From the NCBI GenBank assembly GCA_964415015.1, contig CAYPXM010000002.1:14269-50157 (forward strand): a DNA stretch of 35,889 bases. Reading direction: 5' to 3'. Below are positions 2,424 to 34,502 of this stretch, piece by piece (position 1 is the stretch's first letter; every line of letters begins with the position of its first letter). The stretch comes from an uncultured Muribaculaceae bacterium (lineage in GTDB: Bacteria; Bacillota_I; Bacilli_A; RF39; UBA660). The notes beneath the pieces are model-generated. The model did not search any database. It saw only the letters and a list, made by a program, of their open reading frames with translations, and was not told the DNA's origin. The position numbers and the translations under genes were made by a program.

Positions 2424-2525
2424 TTATTACTCTCCATCTTTATATACAAAATATATCATAATAGGTTTAATAATGTCTATATTTTTAATTATTTACACAA
2501 AAACAAAAAATTATTGAAAAACATA

Positions 2526-2554
2526 TTGCATTTAATTTTTATTTTTGGTAATAT
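2526..2554 (+). promoter_or_regulatory. sigma-A-type promoter of the TasA-like gene
   Basis: TTGCAT (2526-2531), 17-nt spacer, TGgTAATAT extended -10 (2546-2554). It lies downstream of the TTG at 2514, so it argues against the longer ORF start. Confidence 0.45.
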
Positions 2555-2579
2555 TTATATTGTAGAGGAGGTATACAAT

Positions 2580-3164
2580 ATGGAAAAAAGAAACACTGTA
2601 TTTTTAACTATTATTGCTGTTGCAACTTTATTAGTTGCTGTTATTGGAGCTACATTCGCATACTTTAGTGTACAAATCACTGGTAACGATACTGCTACTT
2701 CAACAATTATTAAAACAGCAAACATCAAGATAACTTACAATGCAGGAGATTCAATATCTGGTGAGAACATTGAACCAAATTGGAGCGATGATTTAACTTT
2801 CACTGTTGCAAATGAAGGTGATCGTCAATTAAGCTACTATATTAAATGGAACGATGTAACTAACACTTTTGATGCAGATTATCCAGGTGAGTTAACATAC
2901 ACTGTTGCTTGTCAAGCAGGTTTGACTTGTGGAAAAACTTTAACAAGTACTGAAGCACCAACAGCAGATGGTTATATTGATTATGCTGCTGGAGCTATTA
3001 ATATTGCTGCAGGCGTAACTCATTCATATGTTATTCATATGGCTTTTGCAGAAACTGGTTCTGAACAAAATTATAACCAAGGTAAATCATTTACTGGCGC
3101 TATAAATATTGAATTAGCTGGAACAACTGTTTTCTCAACTGATGAAGTTATTTCTGGTAGTTAG
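2580..3164 (+). CDS. TasA/CalY (camelysin, M73-like fold) secreted fibre-type protein with SipW-dependent-type signal peptide
   Basis: ATG at 2580 follows a strong GAGGAGG RBS. The N-terminus MEKRNTVFLTIIAVATLLVAVIGATFAYFS matches the Bacillus CalY/TasA signal (GGTFAYFSD). The mature part has the TasA-like pattern (L.I.Y..G..I.GE.I.P ... N.G ... QG.SF.G.I). The product is 194 aa and Ala/Thr/Gly-rich, and the gene has its own promoter and strong terminator. Confidence 0.75.
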   Translation: MEKRNTVFLTIIAVATLLVAVIGATFAYFSVQITGNDTATSTIIKTANIKITYNAGDSISGENIEPNWSDDLTFTVANEGDRQLSYYIKWNDVTNTFDADYPGELTYTVACQAGLTCGKTLTSTEAPTADGYIDYAAGAINIAAGVTHSYVIHMAFAETGSEQNYNQGKSFTGAINIELAGTTVFSTDEVISGS

Positions 3165-3276: not shown

Positions 3277-4047
3277 ATGAAGAATAATGAGGAACAAATA
3301 AATAATAATATAGTCGAAAAAAAAGATAAAAAACATCATCAAGGATGGTTATTCCTTTTGTTTGCATTATGTTTTTTATTTGTTAGTTTTACCTCAACTT
3401 TTTCTTTCTTTCGGTTAAAAGAAGTTATTAAAAAAACCGAACCGGTTATTGATATTGATCCTGTTAGCAGTGAAAATCCTTCAAGTAGTACTAAAAAACC
3501 AGATGTATCATCAGTGATACCACCTAAAATTTCTAGTTCAACTACACCAGGTGATTCTAGTATAATACCGATTATTTCTAGTAGTGAATCTGGTAGTAGT
3601 GAAACCAGTAGTTCAAGTAGTACAATACCTGAAGAACCTGATATTCCGGATGATGGAACTACTAAAATATTAAAAGTAGTATATATGGCTGGTAGTGAAA
3701 TAGAGTCTGTAGGGGATGTATTACCAGGATGGACTAGTGGAGAAAAAATAATTAAAATAACTAATATGAGTGATGTCTTATTAAAATATAATGTAATGTG
3801 GACTAATGTTACTAATACTTTTAATCGAAAAAGCGATTTAACATATCATATCAGAGTCGGAAATAGTGAATTATCAACTGGCGTGTTACCTAGTCGAAAA
3901 TCTGCATTAATGAATAATGTTTCCATTGCTAGTGGAGAAACTCATACTATTAAAATTTTTATAAAATATGCTAATTTAAATTTAGATCAAAGCGTTGATA
4001 TGGGAAAATTATTTGCAGGGACTGTTCTAATTGAAAATGTCGAATAA
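3277..4047 (+). CDS. membrane-anchored/secreted protein: signal-anchor, Ser/Thr/Pro-rich stalk, TasA-like C-terminal domain (TapA-like position)
   Basis: GAGG RBS. A TM segment ends in TSTFSFF, resembling the ATFAYFS motif. Residues ~62-127 are S/T/P low-complexity. The C-terminal domain is paralogous to 2580..3164 (WTNVTNTF vs WNDVTNTF; GETHTIKIF vs GVTHSYVIH; GKLFAGTV vs GKSFTGAI). Confidence 0.65.
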   Translation: MKNNEEQINNNIVEKKDKKHHQGWLFLLFALCFLFVSFTSTFSFFRLKEVIKKTEPVIDIDPVSSENPSSSTKKPDVSSVIPPKISSSTTPGDSSIIPIISSSESGSSETSSSSSTIPEEPDIPDDGTTKILKVVYMAGSEIESVGDVLPGWTSGEKIIKITNMSDVLLKYNVMWTNVTNTFNRKSDLTYHIRVGNSELSTGVLPSRKSALMNNVSIASGETHTIKIFIKYANLNLDQSVDMGKLFAGTVLIENVE

Positions 4048-4052
4048 TATGT

Positions 4053-4080
4053 AAACAAGCATTTTAATGCTTGTTTTTTA
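4053..4080 (+). terminator. rho-independent terminator
   Basis: AAACAAGCAT / ATGCTTGTTT 10-bp stem, TTTA loop, T-run. Confidence 0.75.
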
Positions 4081-4129
4081 TTGTTTTGGGATAAAATAAA
4101 TAATATAATAATAATGATAGGTGAATGTG

Positions 4130-4876
4130 ATGACAAAGAATAAAAAGGAAAAATATACTTCTAAAGTATCTGTTTTTGAATTCATAAAAGGGGTTTTAAC
4201 CTGGACTCTTTTTAGTTTTCTTTTAATTATTGCATTATTACTTGTATATTATGTTTTTGCTAATTATCGATATTCTAAAAAAGGCGAAGGATTTGAACCG
4301 GCATTTTCTTTATTCACCATAATAAGTCCATCCATGGAACCAAATGTCAATGTGTATGATGTAATTGTTGATTTACCAGTAAAAGATGCTAGTACAATAA
4401 AAGTAGGAGATATAATTACTTTTATATCTAATTCTAGTGTTTCCGAAGGAATGACTGTTACTCACCGTGTCACACAAATTAATGTTGTTAATGGCGAGTA
4501 TGAATTTAATACAAAAGGTGATAATAATGAAACAGAGGATACTGGTCGAGTTCATGAAAAAGATATTATAGGCCGGGTTAAACTACGAATTCCTCAATTA
4601 GGACGATTACAATATTTTTTAGCTAGCCGTGGCGGTTGGTTATTAGTAATCCTAATTCCGGCAGTTGTTATTTTAATTATGGATATTATAAAACTGGTTA
4701 GAATGTTTAAAGTTAAGAAAAAAGTTGATGCTATTAATGGTGAAGATAAAGATGTATCTATTGAAACTAAAGAAAAATTATTAACTAAAAAACAAGAACT
4801 AATGAGTAAATATCAAAAAGATGAGTTACCAAAAGATTTAGACGATATAGAAATGGAATTACCAAAATTAAAATAG
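4130..4876 (+). CDS. sipW: signal peptidase I, archaeal/ER type (S26B, SipW-like)
   Basis: N-terminal TM, then SPSMEP (catalytic Ser box), GDIITF, THRV (His box), TKGDNN, IIGRV and IPQLG, plus a C-terminal TM helix, as in Bacillus SipW. The ATG at 4130 is 5 nt after the AGGTGA RBS. The GTG starts at 4121 and 4127 are alternatives. Confidence 0.85.
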   Translation: MTKNKKEKYTSKVSVFEFIKGVLTWTLFSFLLIIALLLVYYVFANYRYSKKGEGFEPAFSLFTIISPSMEPNVNVYDVIVDLPVKDASTIKVGDIITFISNSSVSEGMTVTHRVTQINVVNGEYEFNTKGDNNETEDTGRVHEKDIIGRVKLRIPQLGRLQYFLASRGGWLLVILIPAVVILIMDIIKLVRMFKVKKKVDAINGEDKDVSIETKEKLLTKKQELMSKYQKDELPKDLDDIEMELPKLK

Positions 4877-4881
4877 GTTAA

Positions 4882-4911
4882 TTTACAAAGATAAGTTAAA
4901 TATGGTAAAAT
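4882..4911 (+). promoter_or_regulatory. sigma-A-type promoter
   Basis: TTTACA (4882-4887), 18-nt spacer, TGgTAAAAT extended -10 (4903-4911). It overlaps the ATG at 4910, which favours the start at 4931. Confidence 0.4.
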
Positions 4912-4930
4912 GATAATACTAGGAGGTTAT

Positions 4931-6280
4931 ATGTTAATAAATCAAATAATAAAAAAACAAATTATTATTTTTTCCTTAATTATTGTTATTGCGTTAGCCT
5001 CAATAGCTAGTGTTTCATATGCCATTTTTTATACTGTTACTAGTAACACTGATAATCAAGTAATCCAAACGGGGAATTTAGATGTTACTTTTGGTGCTGG
5101 TGGATCGACCATAAGTGGTGAAATATTACCAATGACGGATGCTCAAGGATTAGCCCAAACTGGTTACGGTATTACTTTAGCAAATCAGATATCTAGTCCA
5201 ATTAAATATTCGGTAACAATTTATAATAATGCCCCTAATAATTTTTCGGGAACTATAGTGAGTCATGAATATATAAAAATATCAATTGATGGAAATACAC
5301 CAATAAAATTAAATCAATTACCTAATCAAAATGGGGGAGTTACAGAGAATACTACAATATATGATTTATATAGTGATGCTTTAGCTGTTAGTGGTAGTAC
5401 TAACCACACCGTTCGAGTTTGGTTAGATGATAATACTCCATATAGTGAAGCTGGTAAATATGTTTATTTACAAATAAAAGTAACAAGTGAAATGGCAGAT
5501 AAGAATTTTAGTGAATATATTAAGGCTAAAAATAGTATTATTGCTACTGCTCCTACATTAACTAATACAAGTAGTAGTACAAATCAAAATGGTTTATACG
5601 AAGTAACCGCAACTAATTCGGGTAATGCAACATATGTATTTAGAGGCAATGTAAATAATAATTATGTAACATTTGCAGGCCTTTCTTGGAGAATAGTAAG
5701 AATTAATGAAGATAATTCAGTTCGTATTGTTTTAGCAAATGGAATTAATTCTAATACTTTATATCGTTTTAGTAGTAGCGCAAGTAGTGCTAATAATATG
5801 GTTTATAATAATGCTTCGGCGGAAATTAACAGTGTTGTCACTAGTTGGTATAATACAACCTTATTTGGATATACCTCTAAACTAAGTGAACAAGAATATT
5901 GTGTTGGAATTAAAGCTAGTATTAGCGGTGCTTCAACAGGAACAATATATAGTTCTTATAGTCCTAACTTTACTTGTTCGGGTAGTGATGTAATGAGTAG
6001 TAAAATTGCATTATTAACATATGATGATATTATTTATGCTGGTTCATATTATAACTTAAGCAATACGAGTTATCTAAATGCTACTAACCCAACTTGGACA
6101 ATGTCACCAGCGGGATTTGTAAGTAATGTTGCTTATGATTGGATTTTAAGTGCTAATGGTAGTATTTCATATACTGCTACTAATAGTAGTGTTAATACTA
6201 TACGACCAGTAATAAATTTAAAAGCTAACACTTTTGCTCATGGTGAAGGTACTAGTACAAACCCATATATTATTGAATAA
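4931..6280 (+). CDS. secreted two-domain surface protein: SipW-type signal + TasA-like N-domain + DUF6273-like C-terminal domain
   Basis: AGGAGG RBS (4921-4926). The signal-anchor ends in SVSYAIFY. The N-domain has GNLDVTFGAGGSTISGEILP. The C-domain (from ~5590) has YVTFAGLSWRIVRINEDNSVRIVL, WYNTTL, LSEQEYC, IALLTYDDI, WTMSP and TIRPVINL, the pattern I associate with DUF6273. Confidence 0.7.
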   Translation: MLINQIIKKQIIIFSLIIVIALASIASVSYAIFYTVTSNTDNQVIQTGNLDVTFGAGGSTISGEILPMTDAQGLAQTGYGITLANQISSPIKYSVTIYNNAPNNFSGTIVSHEYIKISIDGNTPIKLNQLPNQNGGVTENTTIYDLYSDALAVSGSTNHTVRVWLDDNTPYSEAGKYVYLQIKVTSEMADKNFSEYIKAKNSIIATAPTLTNTSSSTNQNGLYEVTATNSGNATYVFRGNVNNNYVTFAGLSWRIVRINEDNSVRIVLANGINSNTLYRFSSSASSANNMVYNNASAEINSVVTSWYNTTLFGYTSKLSEQEYCVGIKASISGASTGTIYSSYSPNFTCSGSDVMSSKIALLTYDDIIYAGSYYNLSNTSYLNATNPTWTMSPAGFVSNVAYDWILSANGSISYTATNSSVNTIRPVINLKANTFAHGEGTSTNPYIIE

Positions 6281-16236: not shown

Positions 16237-17343
16237 ATGAAAAAGAAATTTATAGTAACTTTAGGCGTTATGTTATCACTAATTATTATTGCCGGTTCAT
16301 CATATGCTTATTATCAAATTAATCCAATAGGTGAATCTAGTGATGTAGAAATAGTAGCTAAAGATCTAAAAGTAAAGTATTCTGATGGTCCAGAAATAAA
16401 TGTAGATGATTTTTTGCCCGGTGGTAGTGTAGTTAAAACCTTTAGTATTGAAAATGAGGGAACAGAAGATATCAATTATGCCATAAACATTGAAGATATA
16501 ACCAATGATTTTATATATAAAGGTGATATCCTTATTACATTAACTAGTAATTATGTAAGTGGTCATATTGAAGATATTTCTTTTCCAAGTCGTAATCGAA
16601 CAATCTTAAAAAATTTAACCATCACTCCAAATGAAACTCATAGTTATACAATGACGATTGAATTTATAAATGATGGTGATCAATCAGAAGATATGAATAA
16701 AACAATATCTGGTAAAGTTCAAGTAATTGAAAATGCTAACGCCTTAAAACCATGTGAAATGACTAATGATGTTAATGGTAATGGAGTAGCTGATATAGGT
16801 GATGAAGTAACTTGTGACTCTGAATCATTTTATGTATATGATAATACTGGAGACAACTTAAAAATGCTTGCTAAGTATAATTTGTATGTAGGTGATGAGT
16901 ATTCTTTATCAACTGGTATCAGAAAACAATATCAAAATTTTTCTGGAATTCAAAATAGTGAAATGAGAGGATATATTGTTAACGATGATATAAGAAAGGG
17001 GACAACAAGATTTTCTGTTATATCCAATGATTATGAAGGTAGTGATGTTAAATCATATGTGGAATTCTATGAATCATATCTTAATATCAATTTAGGTGTA
17101 GTTAATACCGCATATTTATTATCTTCTAATGAAGCAAATAGCCTTGGTTGTTCTCCCTTATCTGTATGTGTAAATTCGCCATATTCTTGGTTATTTACAT
17201 CAAGTTATTGGTTAAGTGACGGCGACAATAATGATCAACATTATTTTATTCGTAATAATAAGCAATTATTTATGACTAAATATTCATATATAAATAATGA
17301 TGGTGTCCGTCCAGTTATAACCATTGCTAAAAATTTAGTTTAG
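16237..17343 (+). CDS. secreted two-domain surface protein: SipW-type signal + TasA-like N-domain + DUF6273-like C-terminal domain (paralogue of 4931..6280)
   Basis: AGGAG RBS. The signal ends in GSSYAYYQ. N-domain: LKVKYSDGPEINVDDFLPGGSVVKTFSIENEGT, NETHSYTMTIEF, ISGKVQVIE. C-domain: AYLLSSNEANSLG, SYWLSDG, DGVRPVITI. Confidence 0.7.
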   Translation: MKKKFIVTLGVMLSLIIIAGSSYAYYQINPIGESSDVEIVAKDLKVKYSDGPEINVDDFLPGGSVVKTFSIENEGTEDINYAINIEDITNDFIYKGDILITLTSNYVSGHIEDISFPSRNRTILKNLTITPNETHSYTMTIEFINDGDQSEDMNKTISGKVQVIENANALKPCEMTNDVNGNGVADIGDEVTCDSESFYVYDNTGDNLKMLAKYNLYVGDEYSLSTGIRKQYQNFSGIQNSEMRGYIVNDDIRKGTTRFSVISNDYEGSDVKSYVEFYESYLNINLGVVNTAYLLSSNEANSLGCSPLSVCVNSPYSWLFTSSYWLSDGDNNDQHYFIRNNKQLFMTKYSYINNDGVRPVITIAKNLV

Positions 17344-17368
17344 ATAGCATGTTGCTATTCTTTTTTTT
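17343..17368 (+). terminator. weak rho-independent terminator
   Basis: GATAGCA / TGCTATT 7-bp stem (one G.U pair), 3-nt loop, T8 run. Confidence 0.4.
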
Positions 17369-17377
17369 ACTATTTTT

Positions 17378-17386
17378 TGGTATAAT
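17378..17386 (+). promoter_or_regulatory. extended -10 promoter element of the TIR gene
   Basis: TGgTATAAT, with a poor -35. It lies 27 nt upstream of the ATG at 17413. Confidence 0.45.
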
Positions 17387-17412
17387 TACTATGTTTGAAA
17401 GAGGGAAGTAAT

Positions 17413-19785
17413 ATGGCTAAAAATAATAGTTATCATTATGATGCATTTATCAGTTACAGACATAGTGAATTAGATAAATATGTTGCTGAAACTCTACATC
17501 ATTTATTAGAAACATATAAATTACCAAAAAGCATTAAAGAAAAATATGGTATAACCAGAAATGGCATTAATCGGATATTTCGTGATCGAGAAGAATTACC
17601 ACTTGCTAGTAATTTAGAGGATCCAATTATTGATGCCCTAAAAAATAGTGATTATTTAATCGTTATTTGTTCACCACGCTTAAAAGAATCGATGTGGTGT
17701 AAAAGAGAAATAGAAACTTTTATTGATTTACATGGTAGAGATCATGTATTATCGGTTTTAATTGAAGGTGAACCAAAGGACTCATTTCCTGATGAACTAC
17801 TATATAGTTATGAATTAGTTAAAGGCAAGAAAGTAAAAAAATGTGTTGAACCACTAGCAGCTGATGTCAGAGGGAATAATAAAAAAGAGGTTAAAAAACT
17901 GATTAAAGCAGAGATGTTACGTCTTTTAGCACCTATTTTTGATTTGAATTACGATGATTTAAAACAACGACATAAAGAAAGAAAACAAAAACAACTAGTA
18001 GCATTGATTTCTAGTATTTGTATATTTTTATTAATATTTAGTATTTATACTACTTCAATGGTTCTAATTATTAATCAACAAAAAAATATGTTGCGTACTG
18101 ATCAAGCCAGTAATTTAGCCAGAGAAGCGAGCGAATTATTAAAAAAGGATGATCGTAAGAATGCTACTCATAAAGCATTAATGGCTTTAACCTCTTATAA
18201 AGGGGTAAAGATGCCTTATACTAGTGATGCTGAATATGTATTATCAGATAGTCTTAATGTGTATGACATTGGTAGAAGTAGTGAAGCTTTATACCAATTA
18301 GATACTAAAGGAGTAATTAATAATTATCAATTAAGTCCGGATAAAAACTTATTATTAACATATGATAATTCAAATACTTTAACTTTATGGAATATTAAAA
18401 AAGGAACTATTATCTTAAGTGTTAATGATATATCAGCACTCGGATTTGATACCAATAATTATGCATTCTTTGGAAATGATTATTTTATGTATGAGAGTTT
18501 AGATAATACAATTAATATTATAAGTATTAAGGATAAAAAGATTAAAAAAAGTATTAAATTAGACAGTCTAGTGGCTTTAAATGCTAGTGATGATGGTAAA
18601 TTTTTTGCCCTTACAAATCAAGAAGATATTACGATTTATAATAATGAATACAAAATAATTAAAACCATTAAGGGTGATAAAACGAAAGACATACTAACTA
18701 ATTTTTATTTCTTTAATGAGTATTTATTATATGCTACGGGGGATAATGGTTTTGATAATTTAGATAAATTTGGTTCTCTAGCGATAAATATTATAAATCT
18801 TGAAAATATGAATATAGATAAATATGAAGTGTCTGGTAAATATTTAAAAAGCCTTGATATTAAAGACAATAATGTATTCTTATTAACGGCTGATTCAGCT
18901 AAATTAGATTATCAATCCCATTTAATTAGTATTAATTATAAAACTGGTAAATTAAATTATGAGAAGACTTATAATAATGAATTTGCTACTAAAATGGTAG
19001 TATCAAGTAGTACTAATTACATCGCTATTGCTTCAAGTTTTTTTGTTCACTTAGTAAATAGTAATAATGGTGATATTGTTAATGATTCACCAATTGGTGA
19101 ATCAGTTGTAGGTATTATTCCATCTAAATCTGGAGATATGTTTTTAGCTTTTTCTCGTTCTGGAGAAAATTTCATTATTGATACTAAAACATATAATACC
19201 ACGACGATAAAATCATTATTTAAATTTAATGCCGGAAGTTATAACGAAATAAGTTTATCCACTGCCGGATACTTAGGAGTAGTATTTAATGATAACCGGG
19301 TAATTGTTTATAATTATTATGATAATCAAGATTTAAAAGATATTAATAAAAAAATAAGTACTCCAGAATATTTGTCATATAGTGAGATCAAAAAACTAGC
19401 TGAAGATTTAGATCTAGAAAAAAAGAATTTAGTAACTGGGATAGTAGAAGAAAAAGACTTAGCCTATGTTAGTTATACTGATAAAACACTAGATATTATT
19501 AATACTAAAAATAATGAAGTAATAAATACGATTAATGATCTAACATGTGATATTACTTACTACTATGGAAAAACTAAAGATGGAAACATCATTGTTGGGG
19601 GTAGTGGATATGGTTATATTTTAAATAAGAATTATGAAAAAATTGCTGAAGTAGAAGGTTTAGTTGGATATGACAAAGAAAAGAATTGTTTATATATTAG
19701 TAATAATAGTAAAACATATCAATTACCAATTAAATCAACTAAAGAATTAATTGAGATTGCTAAAAAAATGACTGAGTGCTATTAA
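17413..19785 (+). CDS. TIR domain - single TM - extracytoplasmic WD40-like beta-propeller protein
   Basis: The ATG at 17413 follows a GAGGGA RBS (the track's TTG at 17395 is rejected). TIR motifs: YDAFISYRH, IFRDREEL, YLIVICSP, SMWCKREIETF (Glu99, nt 17707-17709). A basic stretch KQRHKERKQKQ precedes a hydrophobic helix (~17995-18072). Blades then repeat, e.g. YQLSPDKNLLLTYDNSNTLTLWNIKKG. Confidence 0.85.
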   Translation: MAKNNSYHYDAFISYRHSELDKYVAETLHHLLETYKLPKSIKEKYGITRNGINRIFRDREELPLASNLEDPIIDALKNSDYLIVICSPRLKESMWCKREIETFIDLHGRDHVLSVLIEGEPKDSFPDELLYSYELVKGKKVKKCVEPLAADVRGNNKKEVKKLIKAEMLRLLAPIFDLNYDDLKQRHKERKQKQLVALISSICIFLLIFSIYTTSMVLIINQQKNMLRTDQASNLAREASELLKKDDRKNATHKALMALTSYKGVKMPYTSDAEYVLSDSLNVYDIGRSSEALYQLDTKGVINNYQLSPDKNLLLTYDNSNTLTLWNIKKGTIILSVNDISALGFDTNNYAFFGNDYFMYESLDNTINIISIKDKKIKKSIKLDSLVALNASDDGKFFALTNQEDITIYNNEYKIIKTIKGDKTKDILTNFYFFNEYLLYATGDNGFDNLDKFGSLAINIINLENMNIDKYEVSGKYLKSLDIKDNNVFLLTADSAKLDYQSHLISINYKTGKLNYEKTYNNEFATKMVVSSSTNYIAIASSFFVHLVNSNNGDIVNDSPIGESVVGIIPSKSGDMFLAFSRSGENFIIDTKTYNTTTIKSLFKFNAGSYNEISLSTAGYLGVVFNDNRVIVYNYYDNQDLKDINKKISTPEYLSYSEIKKLAEDLDLEKKNLVTGIVEEKDLAYVSYTDKTLDIINTKNNEVINTINDLTCDITYYYGKTKDGNIIVGGSGYGYILNKNYEKIAEVEGLVGYDKEKNCLYISNNSKTYQLPIKSTKELIEIAKKMTECY

Positions 19786-19832: not shown

Positions 19833-20516
19833 ATGAAAAAGAAGTTAATTATTTTAGGGGTTGTGGCTTTAATTATTGTTTTATTAAATGCGATTTATTA
19901 TAGTTTTATTTATCATAAACCAATTGATTCGGAAGTATTAAACAAAATTAAAGCTAAAAAATTAATGATCGTTGCTCATCCTGATGATGAAATTATTTGG
20001 GGTGGAAGTCATTTAATTGATGACGAATACTTTGTTGTATGTTTAACAAATGCGAATGATGAAGTACGAAGTGAAGAATTTAAAAAAGCGATGGCTTATA
20101 CTAATGATGCATATATAATGCTTGATTATCAAGATAGATTTATGGATAAAAAAAGTCGTTGGACAATTGAACAATTCTTTATTAAGCGTGATTTAAAACA
20201 AATAATTAACTTAAAAAATTGGGAAGAAATAGTAACTCATAATCCGGATGGGGAATATGGACATATTCAACATAAATTAACTAGTAAATATGTAACAAAA
20301 TATGCTAAAGATAAGAATTTATTATATTTTGGTTATTACTATGAAAAAGAAATTCCTAATAATGTAAGTACTATTCCGGATATTAATTATCAAAAAAAGA
20401 TTACTGACTTGGTAGAAATTTATAAGTCACAAAAGATTTTAAAACCTTATGGTCAAATGTTAAACCATGAAAGTTGGGTTAGTTATGAGGACTGGGAAAA
20501 AAACCAAACAAAATAA
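19833..20516 (+). CDS. PIG-L/LmbE family deacetylase with N-terminal signal-anchor
   Basis: AGAGGGA RBS. N-terminal TM MKKKLIILGVVALIIVLL. Motif MIVAHPDDEIIWGG (the AHPDDE zinc-site motif) and a later HNPDGEYGHIQH. Confidence 0.8.
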   Translation: MKKKLIILGVVALIIVLLNAIYYSFIYHKPIDSEVLNKIKAKKLMIVAHPDDEIIWGGSHLIDDEYFVVCLTNANDEVRSEEFKKAMAYTNDAYIMLDYQDRFMDKKSRWTIEQFFIKRDLKQIINLKNWEEIVTHNPDGEYGHIQHKLTSKYVTKYAKDKNLLYFGYYYEKEIPNNVSTIPDINYQKKITDLVEIYKSQKILKPYGQMLNHESWVSYEDWEKNQTK

Positions 20517-22971
20517 ATATTTAGATATTTTTGCGATAGTATTTTTTGCTATCGTTTTTAGTATGGTATATTTTATCTTAACTAATGAAAATTACTTGTA
20601 TGGTTCTACTATTGATTGGCAAAATCAACATTATGTAATACCAGAATACTTTCGTAATTTATTTTATCAAACAAAAGATATCTTTCCATCACTTGCAATG
20701 CATCTTGGAAGTGGCCAAAATATATTTTATTTTGCCTATTACGGCTTATATAGTCCTATTATTTTAATATCATATTTATTACCCAATGTTAGCATGATTG
20801 ATTATATTACTTATAGTACAATAATTCTTGCTTTTAGTAGTGTAGTATTATTTTATTTCTTTTTAAAAAAGCATCAATTTAATTTTTTGACGCGATTGGT
20901 AGTAACTACCTTATTTATGTGTGCAGGTCCAATTTTATACAATACTCATCGCCAAATTATGTTTATTAATTACATGCCTTTTTTAATATTAGGGTTATAT
21001 GGAGTAGATAATTATTTCAGTAAGAAAAAGAACTTATTATTAGTAATTAGTTTCTTTTTATTAATCATGACATCTTTTTATTTTAGCGTTAGTTCAGCCT
21101 TTATTTTAATTATTTATTTTACATATTTATATCTTAAAAATAATGAGTTATTTAAATTTAAATCTTATATGATAGAACTATTAAAATTTAGTCTTTCATT
21201 TGTTATTGCCTATTTATTAGCATCATTCTTACTTTTTCCAACTTTAAATTGTTTACTTGAAAGTCGTGGCGGTACTAATAATATTCATTTGATTAAATTA
21301 TTTATTCCGATGATTAGGGGAAAGAATATAATCTATAATTTCTTTGGAATGGGTGTAACTGCTATTACCCTAATTGGATTAATATATACCACCATAAAAA
21401 AAGAAAAAGCATCCCGTTTTTTAGGAATTACGATTCTTTTGTTAGCCTATTTACCGATTGGAGCTTATTTATTAAATGGAACTTTATATACTGATCCTAA
21501 ATCATTATATCCTTTAATTCCATTGTTACTCCTATTTACTGCCCCTTTTATTAATGATGTTATTTATGGAAAAATTGATTTTAAAAAATTAGTTTATATA
21601 ATAATTACAATATGTCTATTATCATTTAATCTTTTTTTAGTAATTGATTCTTTAGTATTATTATTAATATTTTATCTTACTAAGAAACACTTATATATTC
21701 GCACTAGTTACATTATATTATTAAGTATATTATATTTAGTTGGGGTAAATATGAGTGATACTTTATTATCCCGAGATAATTTTCAAAAAGAAAATACTTT
21801 TGTTAGTACACACTTTTTTGATGAAGTAGATAAAAATAATATTTATCGAACCAGTAACTTAATTCATCCTTATAATAATTTTAATAAAATATATAGTGAT
21901 AAACAGTATTTAACTACCATGTATAGTTCTAGTAGTAATAAATTATATAATAATTTTTATTTTGATTTAACTGCCAATAATATACCATATCGAACAAGAG
22001 CAATGATGATGGCATCAACTAATCCATTATTTCAAATGTATATGGGAGAAAAATATATAATTAGTAATAAAGAGAGTATTTTTCATGGTAAATTAATAAA
22101 TCAAGAAAAAAATATTAAATTATATGAACTTGAAAATACATTACCAATTGGTTATGCTACTAGTCATTTAATGAAAAATAGTAATTATGATACTTTAAGT
22201 TATCCCGATAATATTTTAACTTTACTCGGAAATGTTATTACTCCTGATAGTGAACAAAATAAAGTTAATATTAATTATGATATGCCTTTTTATACTATTA
22301 ATAAGACAAGTAATGTGGTAATTAATAATAGTCATCGTAATATTGATGTATTGGCTAATAACAAGGGTTATATGAATTTGGCACTAGATATTGAACCACA
22401 AGATAAAATAATTTTGGTTCGGTTTACCAATAAACGATTACCAGAAAATAAAGATGAAGAATATAGTATTAAAGTAAATGGGATAAAGAATCGTCTAAGT
22501 GCTGTTAACTGGAAGTATTTTAATCATAATAAAACTTTTAACTATGTACTATATAATACTAATAATTTAAAATTCGAATTTACGAAAGGATCATATTATT
22601 TAAGTGATTTAGAAATTATTGTTATTGATTATCAAGAAGTAATTAGTAAAATGAATGATATAGATCCTTTTATCTTTGATAAAGAACGTACTTTAGGTGA
22701 TATATATGAAGGTGATATAAAGGTTACTAATGAAGGATATTTTAAATTATCTATTCCATATGATAAAGGTTATAAAATATATGTAAATGACGAATTAACT
22801 GATTATGAAGTAGTTGATAAAACCTTTATTGGTTTTAAAGTTTCACCTGGTAATTACCATATAAAAATTGTTTATGAAGCCCCTTATTTAAAACTGGGTG
22901 TAATTACATCCTTAGTAAGTTTAACTTTATATATTATAACTATCATTATTACACGAAAAAAACCACATTAG
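20467..22971 (+). CDS. yfhO: YfhO family polytopic membrane protein
   Basis: 834-aa ORF overlapping the end of the PIG-L gene by 50 nt. The alternative ATG at 20485 gives a 32-nt overlap, and neither start has a good RBS. The product is multi-TM with a soluble C-domain and a terminal TM, and is paralogous to 81..2423. Confidence 0.85.
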   Translation: MKVGLVMRTGKKTKQNKYLDIFAIVFFAIVFSMVYFILTNENYLYGSTIDWQNQHYVIPEYFRNLFYQTKDIFPSLAMHLGSGQNIFYFAYYGLYSPIILISYLLPNVSMIDYITYSTIILAFSSVVLFYFFLKKHQFNFLTRLVVTTLFMCAGPILYNTHRQIMFINYMPFLILGLYGVDNYFSKKKNLLLVISFFLLIMTSFYFSVSSAFILIIYFTYLYLKNNELFKFKSYMIELLKFSLSFVIAYLLASFLLFPTLNCLLESRGGTNNIHLIKLFIPMIRGKNIIYNFFGMGVTAITLIGLIYTTIKKEKASRFLGITILLLAYLPIGAYLLNGTLYTDPKSLYPLIPLLLLFTAPFINDVIYGKIDFKKLVYIIITICLLSFNLFLVIDSLVLLLIFYLTKKHLYIRTSYIILLSILYLVGVNMSDTLLSRDNFQKENTFVSTHFFDEVDKNNIYRTSNLIHPYNNFNKIYSDKQYLTTMYSSSSNKLYNNFYFDLTANNIPYRTRAMMMASTNPLFQMYMGEKYIISNKESIFHGKLINQEKNIKLYELENTLPIGYATSHLMKNSNYDTLSYPDNILTLLGNVITPDSEQNKVNINYDMPFYTINKTSNVVINNSHRNIDVLANNKGYMNLALDIEPQDKIILVRFTNKRLPENKDEEYSIKVNGIKNRLSAVNWKYFNHNKTFNYVLYNTNNLKFEFTKGSYYLSDLEIIVIDYQEVISKMNDIDPFIFDKERTLGDIYEGDIKVTNEGYFKLSIPYDKGYKIYVNDELTDYEVVDKTFIGFKVSPGNYHIKIVYEAPYLKLGVITSLVSLTLYIITIIITRKKPH

Positions 22972-24611: not shown

Positions 24612-26627
24612 ATGAAAAGAAAATATCGTTTATATGGTATTATTGGTCTGGCTTTAATATTACTTGGCATAGGAACTTTTTATTCAATTCGTTTAATTAC
24701 GGATAAAAATAAATTAACTACTGATGAAAAAAAGTGGATTAGCGATAACTTAAATAATATTCAAAATATCAATGTAATTGATGATTTAGATGTATTTGGC
24801 CTTAATGGTGTTGGTGTATTTTATGATTTTATTGATGATTTTAGTGGAAAATATAATCTAAAAGTAAATCCCATTACTTATAAAGAGAATGAACTTATTT
24901 CGGGAATTAGTTTTAAAAAAACTAATAATTATCGTAAAAATGATAATTTAATATATACTGATCATTATGTTGTAATTAGTAAAAACATGGTTAACATGCC
25001 TTTAATCGACGATTTAGCTAATAAAAAAATTGGTATTTTAGGTAGTGATGAAACAAGAATTAATGCTTATTTTCAAACGGTAGAAGATGTTAGTTTGAAA
25101 AGTTATGTAAGTATGGATGAATTATATAGCGCAATTAATAATAATACCGATATTAATTATGCAATTGTTCCCTTAAATGATAATATTAGTGAAATAATTG
25201 CTAATGATTTATATGTTTTATATCATTTAAGTGATTTAAATGTTTATTATATTTTAGATACTGATGATTCTCTATTTGGTAGTATTTTAAATAAATATTT
25301 TATTACTTATAAAGAGGATAAACTAGAAAAGACAATAAAAGAAAATCAGTATAATTTGTTTGTTAGTGCACTTAATCTATCTAGTGTTGAAATTGATAAA
25401 ATAAATGCAGAAATCTATGAATATGGCTTTATTAATCAGTCTCCATATGAAATTATTGCGGGTGGTAATTATGGTGGCATAATAAGTTATTATATTAGTG
25501 AATTTAGTAGTTTTTCTAATTTAGAATTTCGGTTTACCAAATATAAAAATTTTACTCAATTTAAACAAGCAATAAGTGAAAAAGAAGTAGATATTTACTA
25601 TAATTATTATGATTTGGAAACCCCTTATGCAACGGTTCCTACTTTAAATTATATAAATTACGAAGTAATCTCTAGTTTAAAAAATGAATTAGTATTAACC
25701 AGTTTAAATGGCTTAAAAAATTATGATGTTTATGCTTTAAATGATAGTAAGATAGCTGCTTATTTAAAAGATTTAGGAATAAATGTTATTACCTATAAAG
25801 ATAATAAAGAATTATTTAAATTAAATCATAAAGATGCAATTATTGTTCTAGATAGCCATATATATGATTATTATCAAAAAGATAAATTAGATAAATACAC
25901 TAGTCGTTTTAGTGGAGTTATTAATGATGTCTATAATTTTAAAATAAAAGATGATGATATTTTATTTAAATTATTTTATCATTATATTAATATAATTGAT
26001 CCTAATGTTGCTTATAACGAAGGAATACTTAACCATACGGAATTATTAAAGACGGGATTAATTTATCGTTCTTTAGCCAAATATTTGTCAATAATTATCG
26101 TTCTATGGGGTTTAGTATGGTTAGTTAGTTATCGTTATCGAAAAAAAATTAAAATTGCTAAACGAATTAAGAAAGATGAAAAAATTCGTTACATTGATCA
26201 ATTAACGTTACTTAAAAATCGAAATTATTTTAGTGAAAATATCGCTAGTTGGAATAAAAATACAATATATCCTCAAGGAATAGTCGTAATTGATTTAAAT
26301 CGAGTACATGAAATTAATGATACACTTGGTTATGAAAAAGGGGATAAACAAATAAAAGCTGCTGCTAATATTTTGATCAAAACCCAACTTGATAATTCGG
26401 AGATAATAAGAACCGATGGTAATGAATTTATGGTCTATTGTGTTGGTTATTCAGAAAAACAAATAGTTAGTTATATTCGTAAGTTACATAAAGAATTTAA
26501 GTATTTGCCTTATGAATATGGTGCAACTATTGGAAAAAGTTTTATTACAAGTGAGTTAAAAAGTGTTGATGATGCTTTAAATGAAGCCATCGATGATATG
26601 AAAAATTTAAAAGAAGAAAATAAATAG
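24612..26627 (+). CDS. membrane protein with a large extracytoplasmic domain and a C-terminal degenerate GGDEF domain
   Basis: TM1 is at residues ~7-27 and TM2 at ~490-507. The GGDEF-domain pattern reads DQLTLLKNRNYF ... VVIDLNRVHEINDTLGYEKGD ... RTDGNEF (nt 26415-26429), so DGNEF replaces GG[DE]EF. No RxxD I-site is visible. Confidence 0.75.
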   Translation: MKRKYRLYGIIGLALILLGIGTFYSIRLITDKNKLTTDEKKWISDNLNNIQNINVIDDLDVFGLNGVGVFYDFIDDFSGKYNLKVNPITYKENELISGISFKKTNNYRKNDNLIYTDHYVVISKNMVNMPLIDDLANKKIGILGSDETRINAYFQTVEDVSLKSYVSMDELYSAINNNTDINYAIVPLNDNISEIIANDLYVLYHLSDLNVYYILDTDDSLFGSILNKYFITYKEDKLEKTIKENQYNLFVSALNLSSVEIDKINAEIYEYGFINQSPYEIIAGGNYGGIISYYISEFSSFSNLEFRFTKYKNFTQFKQAISEKEVDIYYNYYDLETPYATVPTLNYINYEVISSLKNELVLTSLNGLKNYDVYALNDSKIAAYLKDLGINVITYKDNKELFKLNHKDAIIVLDSHIYDYYQKDKLDKYTSRFSGVINDVYNFKIKDDDILFKLFYHYINIIDPNVAYNEGILNHTELLKTGLIYRSLAKYLSIIIVLWGLVWLVSYRYRKKIKIAKRIKKDEKIRYIDQLTLLKNRNYFSENIASWNKNTIYPQGIVVIDLNRVHEINDTLGYEKGDKQIKAAANILIKTQLDNSEIIRTDGNEFMVYCVGYSEKQIVSYIRKLHKEFKYLPYEYGATIGKSFITSELKSVDDALNEAIDDMKNLKEENK

Positions 26628-32558: not shown

Positions 32559-34502
32559 ATGAAGAAATTAAAAGCTAATCAAATAGCTGTATTTAGCGTA
32601 TTTTTAATACTACTAGAAATTATTATTAGAGCATTACTATATAAAACATTTTTTGTAAGTGTTACATTATATACTATTGTTTTTTTAATCCCTTTATCAT
32701 TTATCTTTATGTTGATTACCCTGTTACCAGTGAGAGTAAATAAAATTTGCTTTTATGTATTAACTAGTTTTTTTACCATATATTTTGCTTTCCAATACTG
32801 TTTCTATCATTTATTTAGTACCCCATTTAGTTTTACAACCATCGGCCTTGCTGATCAAGCAGTAGATTTTAGTAATGTGGTATTAGATACGATAATCGCT
32901 AATTGGTGGCAATTACTACTTATTTTTATGCCTTTAATTTTCGTCATAATATTTCATAAACACATTAATTTTAAAAAATATAATCTTCGTCATGGCATAC
33001 TTTTTACTGGTATAATTCTCCTTAGTTATGGAGCTGGATTATTATGTTTATTAATTAATAAAAAAGAGCAATATTCGGCTTATAATTTATATTATAATGT
33101 GAATTCTGATATTGATAATTATAAAACTTTTGGGGTAATTACTTCAAGTCGTCTTGATATTAAAAGACTTATTTTTGGTTTTGAAGAAAAAATTATTTTA
33201 GAAGATTTAGAATTAAATACTAGTCCTACCATTATTGATCCTTTACTTCCAATAGTAAAAGGAGATAATAAAATAGATATTGATTTTGATGGACTTATAA
33301 GTAATACCAGTGATCAGACTTTAACTGGCGTGCATGAATACTTTAAAAATCAAGAACCAACTAATAAAAATCAATATACTGGTTATTATAAAGGTAAAAA
33401 TTTAATCTTTATTTTAGCAGAAGGATTTAATAATATCGCGGTTAGTGAAGAGTTAACTCCTACGTTGTATAAAATGAGTAATAATTCATTTGTTTTTGAA
33501 AACTTTTATTCACCAGTTTTTTTAAGCACGATTGGGGGAGAGTTTCAAGCCGTTACAGGTTTAATTCCAAACCAAGAAATACTTACTAATTGGAAAAAGA
33601 ATATGGTTAGTAATCCTTATGCTTTAGGCCATGCCTTTAATAAGATTGGATACAATACTCAAAGTTATCATGATTGGACTTACACATATTATGCTCGAAA
33701 TAAATATATGCAAAATATCGGATTTAATAATTATTTAGGCTGCAATAATGGAATGGAAAAACTAATTAATTGTAAATGGCTACCTAGTGACATTGAAATG
33801 ATGGATAAAACGGTTGACTTGTATGCTACTAATACACCATTTACAACTTATTATGTAACGGTTAGTGGTCATGCTCCTTATGTCTTAACTAATGGAAATA
33901 GTATTGCCCTAAAAAATAAAGATTTAGTCAAAGATTTACCTTATAGTACAGAAATAAAAGCTTATCTATCAACTCAAATTGAATTAGATAAAGCACTAGA
34001 GACTTTAATTAATAAACTAACTATTGCTGGAGTAATGGATGATACGGTTATTGCCTTAGTAGGAGACCATTATCCATATACCTTATCGACTGATTTAATT
34101 AATGAAATAAGTAGTTATAATCGAGATGGAATTGTCGAAGTAAATCGGAGTAATTTTATTATCTATAATCCTAGTACTCCTAAAACAGTTATTAAGAAAA
34201 CTGGAAGTCAAATTGATGCTTTACCAACCCTTTTAAATTTATTCGGAATCGAATATGATTCTCGTTTAATTGTTGGGCGAGATATATTAAGTAATCAAGA
34301 GGGATTAGCAATTTTTTCTAATCGTAGTTGGGTAACAGACAAAGGAAGATATTATAGTTCTTCTAAGAAATTTGTGCCAAAAGAAAATCAAATAGTTAGT
34401 GATACTTATGTTGAAGATATGAATAAGAAGGTATCCAATAAATTTACAATGAGTAGTTTAATAATGAGTAAAGATTATTATAAAATAGTTTTAGGAGAGT
34501 AG
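32559..34502 (+). CDS. LTA synthase family protein (LtaS-like membrane sulfatase / phosphoglycerol transferase)
   Basis: Five N-terminal TM helices are followed by an extracellular sulfatase-type domain (NLIFILAEGF, FLSTIGGEFQAVTGL, SGHAPY, GDHYPY). Confidence 0.8.
   Translation: MKKLKANQIAVFSVFLILLEIIIRALLYKTFFVSVTLYTIVFLIPLSFIFMLITLLPVRVNKICFYVLTSFFTIYFAFQYCFYHLFSTPFSFTTIGLADQAVDFSNVVLDTIIANWWQLLLIFMPLIFVIIFHKHINFKKYNLRHGILFTGIILLSYGAGLLCLLINKKEQYSAYNLYYNVNSDIDNYKTFGVITSSRLDIKRLIFGFEEKIILEDLELNTSPTIIDPLLPIVKGDNKIDIDFDGLISNTSDQTLTGVHEYFKNQEPTNKNQYTGYYKGKNLIFILAEGFNNIAVSEELTPTLYKMSNNSFVFENFYSPVFLSTIGGEFQAVTGLIPNQEILTNWKKNMVSNPYALGHAFNKIGYNTQSYHDWTYTYYARNKYMQNIGFNNYLGCNNGMEKLINCKWLPSDIEMMDKTVDLYATNTPFTTYYVTVSGHAPYVLTNGNSIALKNKDLVKDLPYSTEIKAYLSTQIELDKALETLINKLTIAGVMDDTVIALVGDHYPYTLSTDLINEISSYNRDGIVEVNRSNFIIYNPSTPKTVIKKTGSQIDALPTLLNLFGIEYDSRLIVGRDILSNQEGLAIFSNRSWVTDKGRYYSSSKKFVPKENQIVSDTYVEDMNKKVSNKFTMSSLIMSKDYYKIVLGE

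Follow-up and report, generated by a model that had tools for sequence, protein, structure and literature searches.

To our knowledge, the prokaryotic TIR systems characterised so far all detect their cues within the cell. The known NAD+-cleaving TIR proteins (SARM1, L6, L7 and RUN1, AbTir, ThsB, TIR-STING, TIR-SAVED and the TIR-APAZ protein of SPARTA) have cytoplasmic sensors (ARM, NB-ARC with leucine-rich repeats (LRRs), STING, SAVED, Argonaute or a separate ThsA), and none of them spans the membrane with a sensor on the outside. Here we analyse a protein of 790 amino acids (aa) encoded in a 35,889-nucleotide (nt) stretch (referred to as the window) of contig CAYPXM010000002.1, which comes from an uncultured bacterium of the GTDB lineage Bacillota_I (RF39, UBA660). 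The protein has the TIR fold of these enzymes and a glutamate in the same S.WC..E context, but its TIR domain is predicted to be joined across the membrane to an extracytoplasmic WD40-like β-propeller. The coupling of a TIR domain to a sensor is in itself known; what would be new is the coupling of a TIR effector to a sensor across the membrane. We found no description of bacterial TIR-transmembrane-propeller proteins in the literature that we covered, which did not extend to Burroughs et al. 2015 (NAR), where they may be mentioned.

Toll-like receptors (TLR1, TLR2, TLR6 and TLR15) also cross the membrane once, carrying an ectodomain made of repeats on the outer side and a TIR domain inside, and they have Box 1, Box 2 and the BB-loop proline in common with the protein described here. 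The TLR TIR domain is, however, C-terminal and the topology is type I, whereas the present family has an N-terminal TIR domain and a predicted N-in/C-out (type II) topology. Furthermore, the TLR ectodomain is an LRR solenoid and not a WD40-like propeller. We know of no MyD88-type adaptors in bacteria. The enzyme-type residue set of the protein (Arg16, Asp58, Trp95 and Glu99) makes catalysis a more likely output than scaffolding.

The same topology and logic, with the output domain inside and the sensor outside, is found in receptor Ser/Thr kinases. Mycobacterium tuberculosis PknD consists of an N-terminal cytoplasmic kinase, one transmembrane helix and an extracytoplasmic NHL β-propeller, the PASTA kinases belong to the same functional class, and the genes of both are chromosomal signalling genes in a housekeeping context. 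Unlike PknD, the present protein has a TIR domain in place of a Hanks kinase and a WD40-like sensor of about eight plus three blades in place of a six-bladed NHL propeller. A TIR effector combined with a WD40 or TPR repeat sensor, with a similar helical element ahead of the repeats, is also characteristic of the STAND-type TIR-NTPase-WD40/TPR conflict systems (Avs, bNACHT, AP-ATPase) described by Kaur et al. (PMC7159879, PMC8195603). The present protein, in contrast, contains no P-loop NTPase: Pfam gave no match to NB-ARC, NACHT or AAA, and aa 130–290 comprise the end of the TIR domain, the transmembrane helix and the stalk. Its repeats are predicted to lie outside the membrane, and its gene has a housekeeping rather than a conflict-system neighbourhood.

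The initial annotation of this locus had concluded that the protein fits none of the Thoeris, CBASS, SPARTA and Avs (AVAST) systems, and our comparison bears this out for these systems and for Pycsar. Neither the window nor the surroundings of related genes contain a ThsA-type SIR2, SLOG or Macro gene, and the NCBIfam model of the Thoeris III protein ThcB4 scored 17.9 bits against a cut-off of 220. Pfam detected no SAVED, STING or CNB domain, the window encodes no CD-NTase or Pycsar cyclase, and the match to the PADLOC SAVED_TIR model is confined to the TIR part (profile positions 15–117 of 404).

Bovatus_RS13830 of Bacteroides ovatus, a protein from the same gut habitat, has a TIR domain of the same subtype (AFISYRH...FRD.DEL...YLIVICSP), after which come one hydrophobic helix and a domain in the periplasm, but this ectodomain is of another kind and the W-C pair ahead of the glutamate is missing (PMC9092222). 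The 152 TIRs that Weagley et al. 2022 assayed include no member of the present family, as their supplement contains neither of its specific motifs PLAADVR and SPRLK (PMC9092222). The columns of their Table S1 are out of register, and the entry ‘Inactive’ beside RSYIYDAFISYRH, a TIR sequence resembling those of the family, was not used because it is not assignable. Candidatus Accumulibacter A0A080MIQ6, which tested inactive (PMC9092222 Table S2), comprises an N-terminal TIR, a hydrophobic helix and a formylglycine-generating-enzyme-type (FGS) domain, and TIR-transmembrane-sensor layouts thus exist beyond the present family. A 2026 preprint on the amoeba protein TirC reports that membrane tethering can restrain TIR NADase activity (PMC13142454), which would be compatible with a regulatory role of the tether here.

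Domain architecture and predicted topology

The open reading frame (ORF) reported in the initial annotation is real and contains all of the TIR motifs quoted there. Its N-terminal part belongs to the TIR superfamily, as it matches Pfam TIR_2 (PF13676) over aa 12–121 with 42.9 bits (cut-off 28, E = 8e-11). The ThsB_TIR profile also scores above its threshold (28.0 versus 21.2 bits), and PF01582 is under its own (18.2 versus 21.3 bits). In the AlphaFold2 model, built on 120 homologues (predicted local distance difference test (pLDDT) 89.9, predicted template modelling score 0.75), aa 9–176 have the flavodoxin-like alternating β/α fold of TIR domains, with strands at residues 9–14, 55–57, 79–86, 112–116 and 149–151, helices at 19–34, 69–77, 94–107 and 157–176, and a pLDDT of about 80–90. 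The domain is therefore longer than the ~130 aa originally assigned to it and reaches about aa 176.

Glu99 had been proposed to occupy the catalytic position of NAD+-cleaving TIRs, and both alignment and conservation agree with this. A PDB profile search with the N-terminal 192 residues paired ‘dslWCkkEietf’ with ‘DSKWCLMELAEI’ of the flax L7/L6 TIR and placed Glu99 on the glutamate of WCLMEL, which is the catalytic glutamate of plant TIRs (L6 E135, RUN1 E100). Glu99 is invariant in 120 of 120 close relatives and in 61 of 61 diverse relatives, a set that includes Butyrivibrio, Fusobacterium and Sinorhizobium. Also invariant in the diverse set are F12, S14, Y15, D21, F56, R57, D58, L62, S93, W95, F103, E120, P121, F125, E146, A149, D151 and R186, and R16 is present in 59 of the 61 sequences, which span three phyla. 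R16 following ‘SY’, together with D58, W95 and E99, presumably corresponds to the pattern of SARM1 and the plant enzymes, as opposed to the ‘SYSERD’ of TLR2.

The protein has one hydrophobic segment, 26 residues long, with a Kyte-Doolittle 19-residue mean of up to 2.54. Exactly one such segment is present in 114 of the 120 homologues, at aa 183–203, its position being kept and its sequence variable (47% mean pairwise identity). According to hydropathy, the N-terminus is hydrophilic and carries neither a signal peptide nor an N-terminal hydrophobic signal. The 15 residues preceding the segment contain on average 4.9 lysines and arginines and the 15 residues following it 2.2, the N-terminal side being the richer one in 108 of the 120 homologues. 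Cysteine makes up 2.0% of the TIR part across the family and 0.13% of the C-terminal part, a 15-fold depletion, and exclusion of cysteine is a known signature of exported proteins in Gram-positive bacteria. The lack of a signal peptide, the charge bias and the exclusion of cysteine from the C-terminal part point to a propeller outside and indirectly support a single-pass type II topology, in which the TIR domain is cytoplasmic and about 570 aa are extracytoplasmic. The transmembrane helix and orientation given in the initial annotation are thus retained. The AlphaFold2 model predicts that this segment is part of one continuous helix, which also contains the invariant R186, and that two further helices extend to aa 280. 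Genes for SpoIVB, for an LtaS-like sulfatase and for two YfhO proteins are present in the window and show that the host is a monoderm member of the Bacillota.

The ectodomain model contains about 43 β-strands, equivalent to about 11 four-stranded blades, between aa 290 and 772, with pLDDT values that are mostly above 90. Foldseek searches of the PDB returned WD40-type propellers only, with E-values down to 4e-17. The matches included the eight-bladed designer propeller Tako8 (template modelling score (TM-score) 0.76, normalised to the target), ODA16 (0.64) and tandem WD proteins (E ~1e-17). At the sequence level, phmmer detected the ATG16L1 WD40 domain (2e-7), and a PDB sequence search matched the WD40 domains of ATG16L1, RACK1 and WDR5 to aa 281–445, with weak matches to TIRs. 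Pfam WD40 and propeller matches within aa 280–707 are all far under their curated cut-offs (e.g. 35.6 versus 305), and the propeller is for this reason called from the structure model and at the level of the fold. The ectodomain, initially described as a single repeating array, is best described as a predicted propeller of about eight blades (aa 290–644) followed by a β-rich module of about three blades (aa 674–772): the propeller fold stands and the uniform array does not. N628, R629 and Y633 of the ectodomain are invariant.

Distribution, selection and genomic neighbourhood

The protein belongs to a large family. A protein database search gave more than 3,500 matches, of which the best 120 are all full-length (782–820 aa) and 34–48% identical; the named relatives among these 120 are ‘Bacilli bacterium’ and Lachnospiraceae metagenome-assembled genomes, annotated only as TIR-domain proteins. 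An exhaustive HMMER search of 50%-identity cluster representatives with aa 1–192 retrieved 1,920 clusters when the threshold was E ≤ 1e-30 and 8,032 when it was E ≤ 1e-10. The TIR domain is at or near the N-terminus in the 150 best matches, and full-length members have 729–1,061 aa. A metagenome scan found at least 528 relatives in rumen, gut and digester samples, and all 69 complete metagenomic ORFs encode an N-terminal TIR motif followed by one hydrophobic helix at about aa 180–290. These ORFs fall into two length classes, of about 785–855 and 970–1,080 aa, both of which are propeller proteins wherever Pfam detects repeats. A scan of genome contigs with a single protein as the query matched one locus, in Wujia sp. 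(L004).

The family is found in Bacillota and Fusobacteriota and is concentrated in gut and rumen anaerobes, its carriers including Blautia, Butyrivibrio, Fusobacterium and uncultured small-genome Bacilli. In the plasmid collection, a module of the same TIR, EPLAAD.R element and transmembrane helix is joined to WD40 repeats in an 814-aa protein of Butyrivibrio fibrisolvens, to clear WD40 repeats in a 1,018-aa protein of Fusobacterium vincentii and to TPR repeats in a 918-aa protein of Sinorhizobium. By these sequence comparisons the family is modular, with one TIR/transmembrane unit combined with different repeat ectodomains. The gene of the TPR variant, on the 773-kb replicon pK101b of Sinorhizobium sp. 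K101 (L010:5560-8316), adjoins an autotransporter gene and a GH108 lysozyme-like gene.

Mean pairwise identity is 81% in the TIR core, 72% in the TIR extension, 62% in the outer linker, 41% in the propeller and 50% in the C-terminal module. Within near-identical groups, the ratio of non-synonymous to synonymous substitution rates (dN/dS) is 0–0.07 for the TIR domain and 0.10–0.27 for the ectodomain. Both parts are under purifying selection, and the ectodomain is less constrained but not diversifying, a pattern more in line with a receptor whose ligand is fairly stable than with an arms race against proteins of phages. In one species-level group (L023–L026, L034, L037 and L047), dS is about 0.02–0.08 in the TIR segment and about 0.1–0.2 in the ectodomain, two- to four-fold lower in the TIR segment in most pairs, which may reflect recombination or synonymous-site constraint in the 5′ part of the gene.

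In the window, the TIR gene is preceded by pcrA, ligA and a gene for a camelysin-like secreted protein and followed by genes for a PIG-L deacetylase, YfhO and, on the opposite strand, SpoIVB, and then by GGDEF, BrkB, ATP-grasp and Tex genes. G+C content is about 26% over the whole window, and the TIR gene does not lie in a compositional island. Relatives on scaffolds of 1.03 and 0.89 Mb are found next to rimM-trmD-rplS-lepB and next to trpS (with a Tex gene about 10 kb away), respectively, and others next to purH/glnS, PFOR/recG or HD/PNP/RNase HII genes. No defence gene lies beside the TIR gene in any of the approximately 60 loci inspected. The family is chromosomal, is located among housekeeping genes that differ between lineages, and is not defence-island-like.

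In agreement with the initial annotation, which had seen no known TIR-system partner, none of the window ORFs was identified by Pfam or PADLOC as a SIR2, SLOG, STING, SAVED, CD-NTase, Argonaute or STAND gene. PADLOC gave a generic TIR match for the protein itself, and neither a system-level (PADLOC) nor a family-level (NCBIfam) model matched; Rfam had no match at the gathering threshold in the whole 36-kb window (1–35889). A phage or prophage origin was rejected because the family has no match in 50,697 phage records and 2.9 million viral contigs (IMG/VR). Association with mobile plasmids was likewise rejected, as the partial matches in the plasmid database are confined to very large replicons (a 243-kb megaplasmid, rhizobial replicons of 0.7–1.1 Mb and a 2.1-Mb record). 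The idea of a rare stand-alone anti-phage device is not supported, given the 1,920 clusters, the housekeeping neighbours, the lack of phage and viral matches and the purifying selection.

When the genes flanking the TIR gene, four to either side, were clustered over 56 non-redundant loci, one neighbour recurred, a DHH-DHHA1 phosphoesterase of about 505–550 aa (e.g. L004:6391-8001, L005:8494-10026 and L097:7001-8527). Its gene is directly upstream of the TIR gene on the same strand in 18 of the 56 loci, the gap being −56 to +97 nt and the two genes often overlapping, and is no more than three genes away in 21; glnS, the next most frequent neighbour, occurs in nine loci. The loci with the DHH gene encode more distant relatives of the window protein (31–35% identity) and part of the 1,000-aa class. 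No DHH gene is present in the window or beside the TIR genes of the closest relatives, and the clustering identified no conserved partner for the ‘Bacilli-type’ clade to which the window protein belongs. The ‘one-protein device’ of the initial annotation thus describes the window, where no partner is found, but not the loci with the DHH gene.

The DHH protein is highly conserved in Lachnospiraceae (72–84% identity; Blautia, Acetatifactor). Its core fold matches the phosphodiesterases NrnA, Pde2, TM1595, DhhP and GdpP, which act on pApA, nanoRNA or c-di-AMP, with TM-scores (target) of up to 0.74. Its β-rich C-terminal ~180 aa have no match in the PDB and contain no recognisable sensor domain for a TIR product. 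In a Blautia sp. (L097) the genes are ordered purH-DHH-TIR-glnS-DUF2225-GntR, and another Lachnospiraceae (L098/L099) has the same block without the TIR gene. The TIR gene, being present or absent at a fixed site, is not strictly core; the initial annotation had named the status of a conserved core gene, with no phage or envelope phenotype, as evidence against its interpretation, and the gene comes close to core status without reaching it. The persistence of the DHH gene without the TIR gene leaves a functional link and inherited synteny as explanations of the adjacency. The Lachnospiraceae block (L005, L098) also encodes a GGDEF-EAL protein close to the TIR gene. In the window, the 671-aa product of ORF 24612–26627 has a GGDEF domain at its C-terminus (aa 527–670), and its N-terminal part of about 520 residues has no Pfam match.

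Several envelope genes lie nearby. The PIG-L deacetylase and YfhO ORFs downstream of the TIR gene (19833–22971) overlap by 50 nt, and the window also contains a second YfhO gene (81–2423, minus strand) and a gene for an LtaS-like sulfatase (32559–34502). In the closest relative (48% identity; P0002), the TIR gene is followed by bPH_3, GT2, GtrA and YfhO genes (L093:2608-6945). A loose association with teichoic-acid glycosylation genes is possible for these two nearest lineages only. Two proteins in the window have camelysin (Peptidase_M73)-like N-terminal regions (2514–3164 and 16237–17343). The first is followed by three ORFs (3277–6280) with no Pfam or PADLOC match, and this group could be a TasA/camelysin-type secreted-fibre cluster.

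The TIR ORF may start at TTG 17395 or ATG 17413 and ends at 19785 (plus strand). Because of the position of the Shine-Dalgarno sequence AGAGGGAAG, translation probably begins at the ATG. Scanning the upstream DNA for promoter and terminator consensus sequences gave no better result than scanning shuffled sequence, so the promoter given in Table 1 was called by reading the sequence. The hairpin that would close the upstream gene is weak, having only two G-C pairs, and is below the reach of the consensus terminator scan. The TIR gene probably carries its own promoter in the window; this −10 element, the Shine-Dalgarno sequence and the lack of a known partner within 36 kb suggest that it is an independent unit there.

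Table 1 Features of the TIR gene and its upstream region in the window
Feature	Position (nt)	Strand	Basis
Terminator-like hairpin ATAGCA-tgt-TGCTAT with T-run, closing the upstream camelysin-like gene	17344..17368	+	Sequence read
Extended −10 promoter element TGgTATAAT (putative)	17378..17386	+	Sequence read, consensus match only
Shine-Dalgarno AGAGGGAAG, 4 nt 5′ of ATG 17413	17400..17408	+	Sequence read
Coding sequence, 790-aa protein (TIR, transmembrane helix, propeller)	17413..19785	+	ORF, Pfam, homologue search, AlphaFold2
TIR domain, aa 9–176, including the family-specific C-terminal element EPLAADVRG and helix 157–176	17437..17940	+	Pfam, AlphaFold2
Glu99 codon, putative catalytic glutamate	17707..17709	+	Alignment with flax L7/L6, conservation
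Continuous predicted helix, aa 180–244: conserved juxtamembrane YDDLKQRH, basic stretch, transmembrane segment, start of outer stalk	17950..18144	+	AlphaFold2
Transmembrane segment, aa 195–220	17995..18072	+	Hydropathy, homologue comparison
Extracytoplasmic helical stalk/linker, aa 221–280, with conserved MPYT motif and Y275/L277/Y284	18073..18252	+	Homologues, AlphaFold2
WD40-like β-propeller, about eight blades, aa 290–644	18280..19344	+	AlphaFold2 strands, Foldseek, phmmer
C-terminal module, aa 656–789: helix, about three more four-stranded sheets, terminal helix	19378..19779	+	AlphaFold2

A proposed outside-in receptor and the alternatives

Combining these findings, we propose, with a probability of roughly 50%, that the protein is an outside-in type II receptor in which the propeller is the sensor and TIR self-association and NAD+ cleavage are the response. 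The helical stalk would hold the propeller between the membrane and the wall of the monoderm cell, where it would bind an extracytoplasmic ligand or an envelope component. Ligand binding or a change in the envelope would alter the oligomeric state of the protein or the geometry of the stalk, and the cytoplasmic TIR domains would be brought into a head-to-tail assembly that forms the active site. The assembled TIR domains would then cleave NAD+, leading either to its depletion and growth arrest or to an ADP-ribose (ADPR)-type product or messenger. TIR enzymes (SARM1, plant TIRs, AbTir, TIR-STING, TIR-SAVED and SPARTA) are activated by sensor-driven self-association, and it is from this requirement that we infer the assembly step.

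Several points weigh against this proposal. The AlphaFold2 model is that of a monomer, and the topology is computed from the sequence by means of hydropathy, charge bias and cysteine content. The TIR domains of TLR15, TLR2, TLR6 and TLR1, which are non-enzymatic and match the TIR domain best in the PDB, carry a glutamate at the position of Glu99; Glu99 alone is therefore no proof of NADase activity, and a glutamate at the catalytic position, though required in an NAD+-cleaving TIR, does not suffice to define one. In addition, the isolated TIR domain of Bovatus_RS13830 gave no NADase product in E. coli lysate (PMC9092222 Table S2), although Weagley et al. 2022 themselves caution that isolated TIR domains can give false negatives (PMC9092222). 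In our assessment, the TIR domain is probably NAD-cleaving.

The same points bear on a less likely alternative, in which the TIR domain is TLR-like and non-catalytic and the protein is an envelope scaffold or adaptor whose propeller organises wall or teichoic-acid enzymes while its TIR domain recruits a conserved cytoplasmic protein. In the PDB profile search, TLR15, TLR2, TLR6 and TLR1 matched at E ~1e-4, ahead of all bacterial TIRs, and the enzyme TIRs (L6/L7, AtTIR, AbTir, RPS4, Cat1, TIR-STING, ROQ1, TcpB and RUN1) scored weaker. The domain contains a TLR-like Box 1 (YDAFISY), and its BB-loop proline P63 is conserved in 59 of the 61 diverse relatives. The extreme conservation over the whole TIR surface would fit partner binding, the related TIR of B. 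ovatus showed no activity in vitro (PMC9092222), and YfhO-type glycosylation genes lie one to four genes downstream in the window and in P0002. However, R16, D58, W95 and E99 are kept in every relative or almost every one, none of the neighbourhoods inspected contains a second TIR or an adaptor gene, and the envelope-gene neighbours are conserved in the closest relatives only.

We consider it unlikely that the protein is an anti-phage abortive-infection sensor, with a propeller that detects adsorption or a breach of the wall and a TIR domain that depletes NAD+ to kill or arrest the cell. TIR NADases are common abortive-infection effectors, and the weak matches to the ThsB_TIR and SAVED_TIR models, the presence or absence of the TIR gene at the fixed Lachnospiraceae site and the faster evolution of the ectodomain compared to the TIR domain would all be in line with such a function. 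The neighbours, however, are rimM/trmD/rplS, trpS, purH, glnS, PFOR/recG and pcrA/ligA and not defence genes, phage and viral sequences gave no matches and plasmids only those on very large replicons, and an ectodomain dN/dS of 0.10–0.27 speaks against diversifying selection. Furthermore, 81% identity of the TIR domain across species is unusual for a defence effector, and the gene is kept on contigs of about 1 Mb from apparently small genomes. On the strength of this genomic context, physiological sensing is favoured over anti-phage defence, and sensing of the envelope or environment tied to growth control is a more likely purpose than that of a classical mobile anti-phage module.

A further explanation, which partly overlaps the receptor proposal and seems to us rather less probable again, is that the TIR domain makes a nucleotide messenger and the NrnA/Pde2-like DHH-DHHA1 phosphodiesterase degrades or processes it, the DHH gene being located elsewhere or lost in the lineage of the window. 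DHH-DHHA1 enzymes are known off-switches for cyclic-oligonucleotide signals. The adjacency (18 of 56 loci versus nine for glnS) spans both the ~800-aa and the ~1,000-aa classes, and the fold matches TM1595, Pde2, DhhP and GdpP. On the other hand, the high conservation of the DHH gene and its persistence in L098/L099 mean that the adjacency may be inherited synteny, the gene is absent from the window and the loci of the closest relatives, and no match of the C-terminal ~180 aa points to a ligand sensor. That the topology is mis-assigned, with the helix buried or peripheral and the protein an NTPase-less intracellular TIR-WD40 sensor, is highly improbable: WD40 propellers and an ‘ALMALT’-type pre-propeller helix are typical of cytoplasmic STAND-WD40 proteins, but the 26-residue stretch with a Kyte-Doolittle mean above 2.5 is found at the same place in 114 of the 120 close homologues and in each of the 69 complete metagenomic ORFs although its sequence varies, and the charge bias and the 15-fold cysteine depletion agree with a membrane-spanning segment.

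The outside-in receptor can be extended to a more speculative and, taken as a whole, doubtful picture. The protein would be a bacterial counterpart of a Toll-type receptor, and its TIR domain the closest bacterial relative of the TLR1/2/6 TIRs. The propeller would respond to a ligand supplied by the host, by the diet, by a neighbouring cell or by the bacterium's own envelope, the TIR domain would make an NAD-derived messenger or gate NAD+, and in Clostridia the DHH phosphodiesterase would be the off-switch. Such a signalling pathway would be new, common among gut commensals and unrelated to phage defence.

Implications for the family

Judged by its genomic context, the protein would have a conserved role in signalling or in the envelope and would not be a striking new immune system. 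If the proposed receptor is correct, a membrane-spanning TIR protein with an outside sensor would represent a bacterial use of the Toll-receptor layout, and surface events would be coupled directly to NAD+ chemistry. The family would also be a test case for membrane tethering in the off/on control of TIR domains and for a common origin of enzyme-type and scaffold-type TIRs. Given the size of the family in gut and rumen anaerobes, its activity could affect the NAD and ADPR metabolites of the gut, which Weagley et al. 2022 have already brought up as a subject (PMC9092222). Even if the protein is an ordinary envelope scaffold, a fold and a predicted topology can now be assigned to thousands of proteins labelled only ‘TIR domain-containing protein’.

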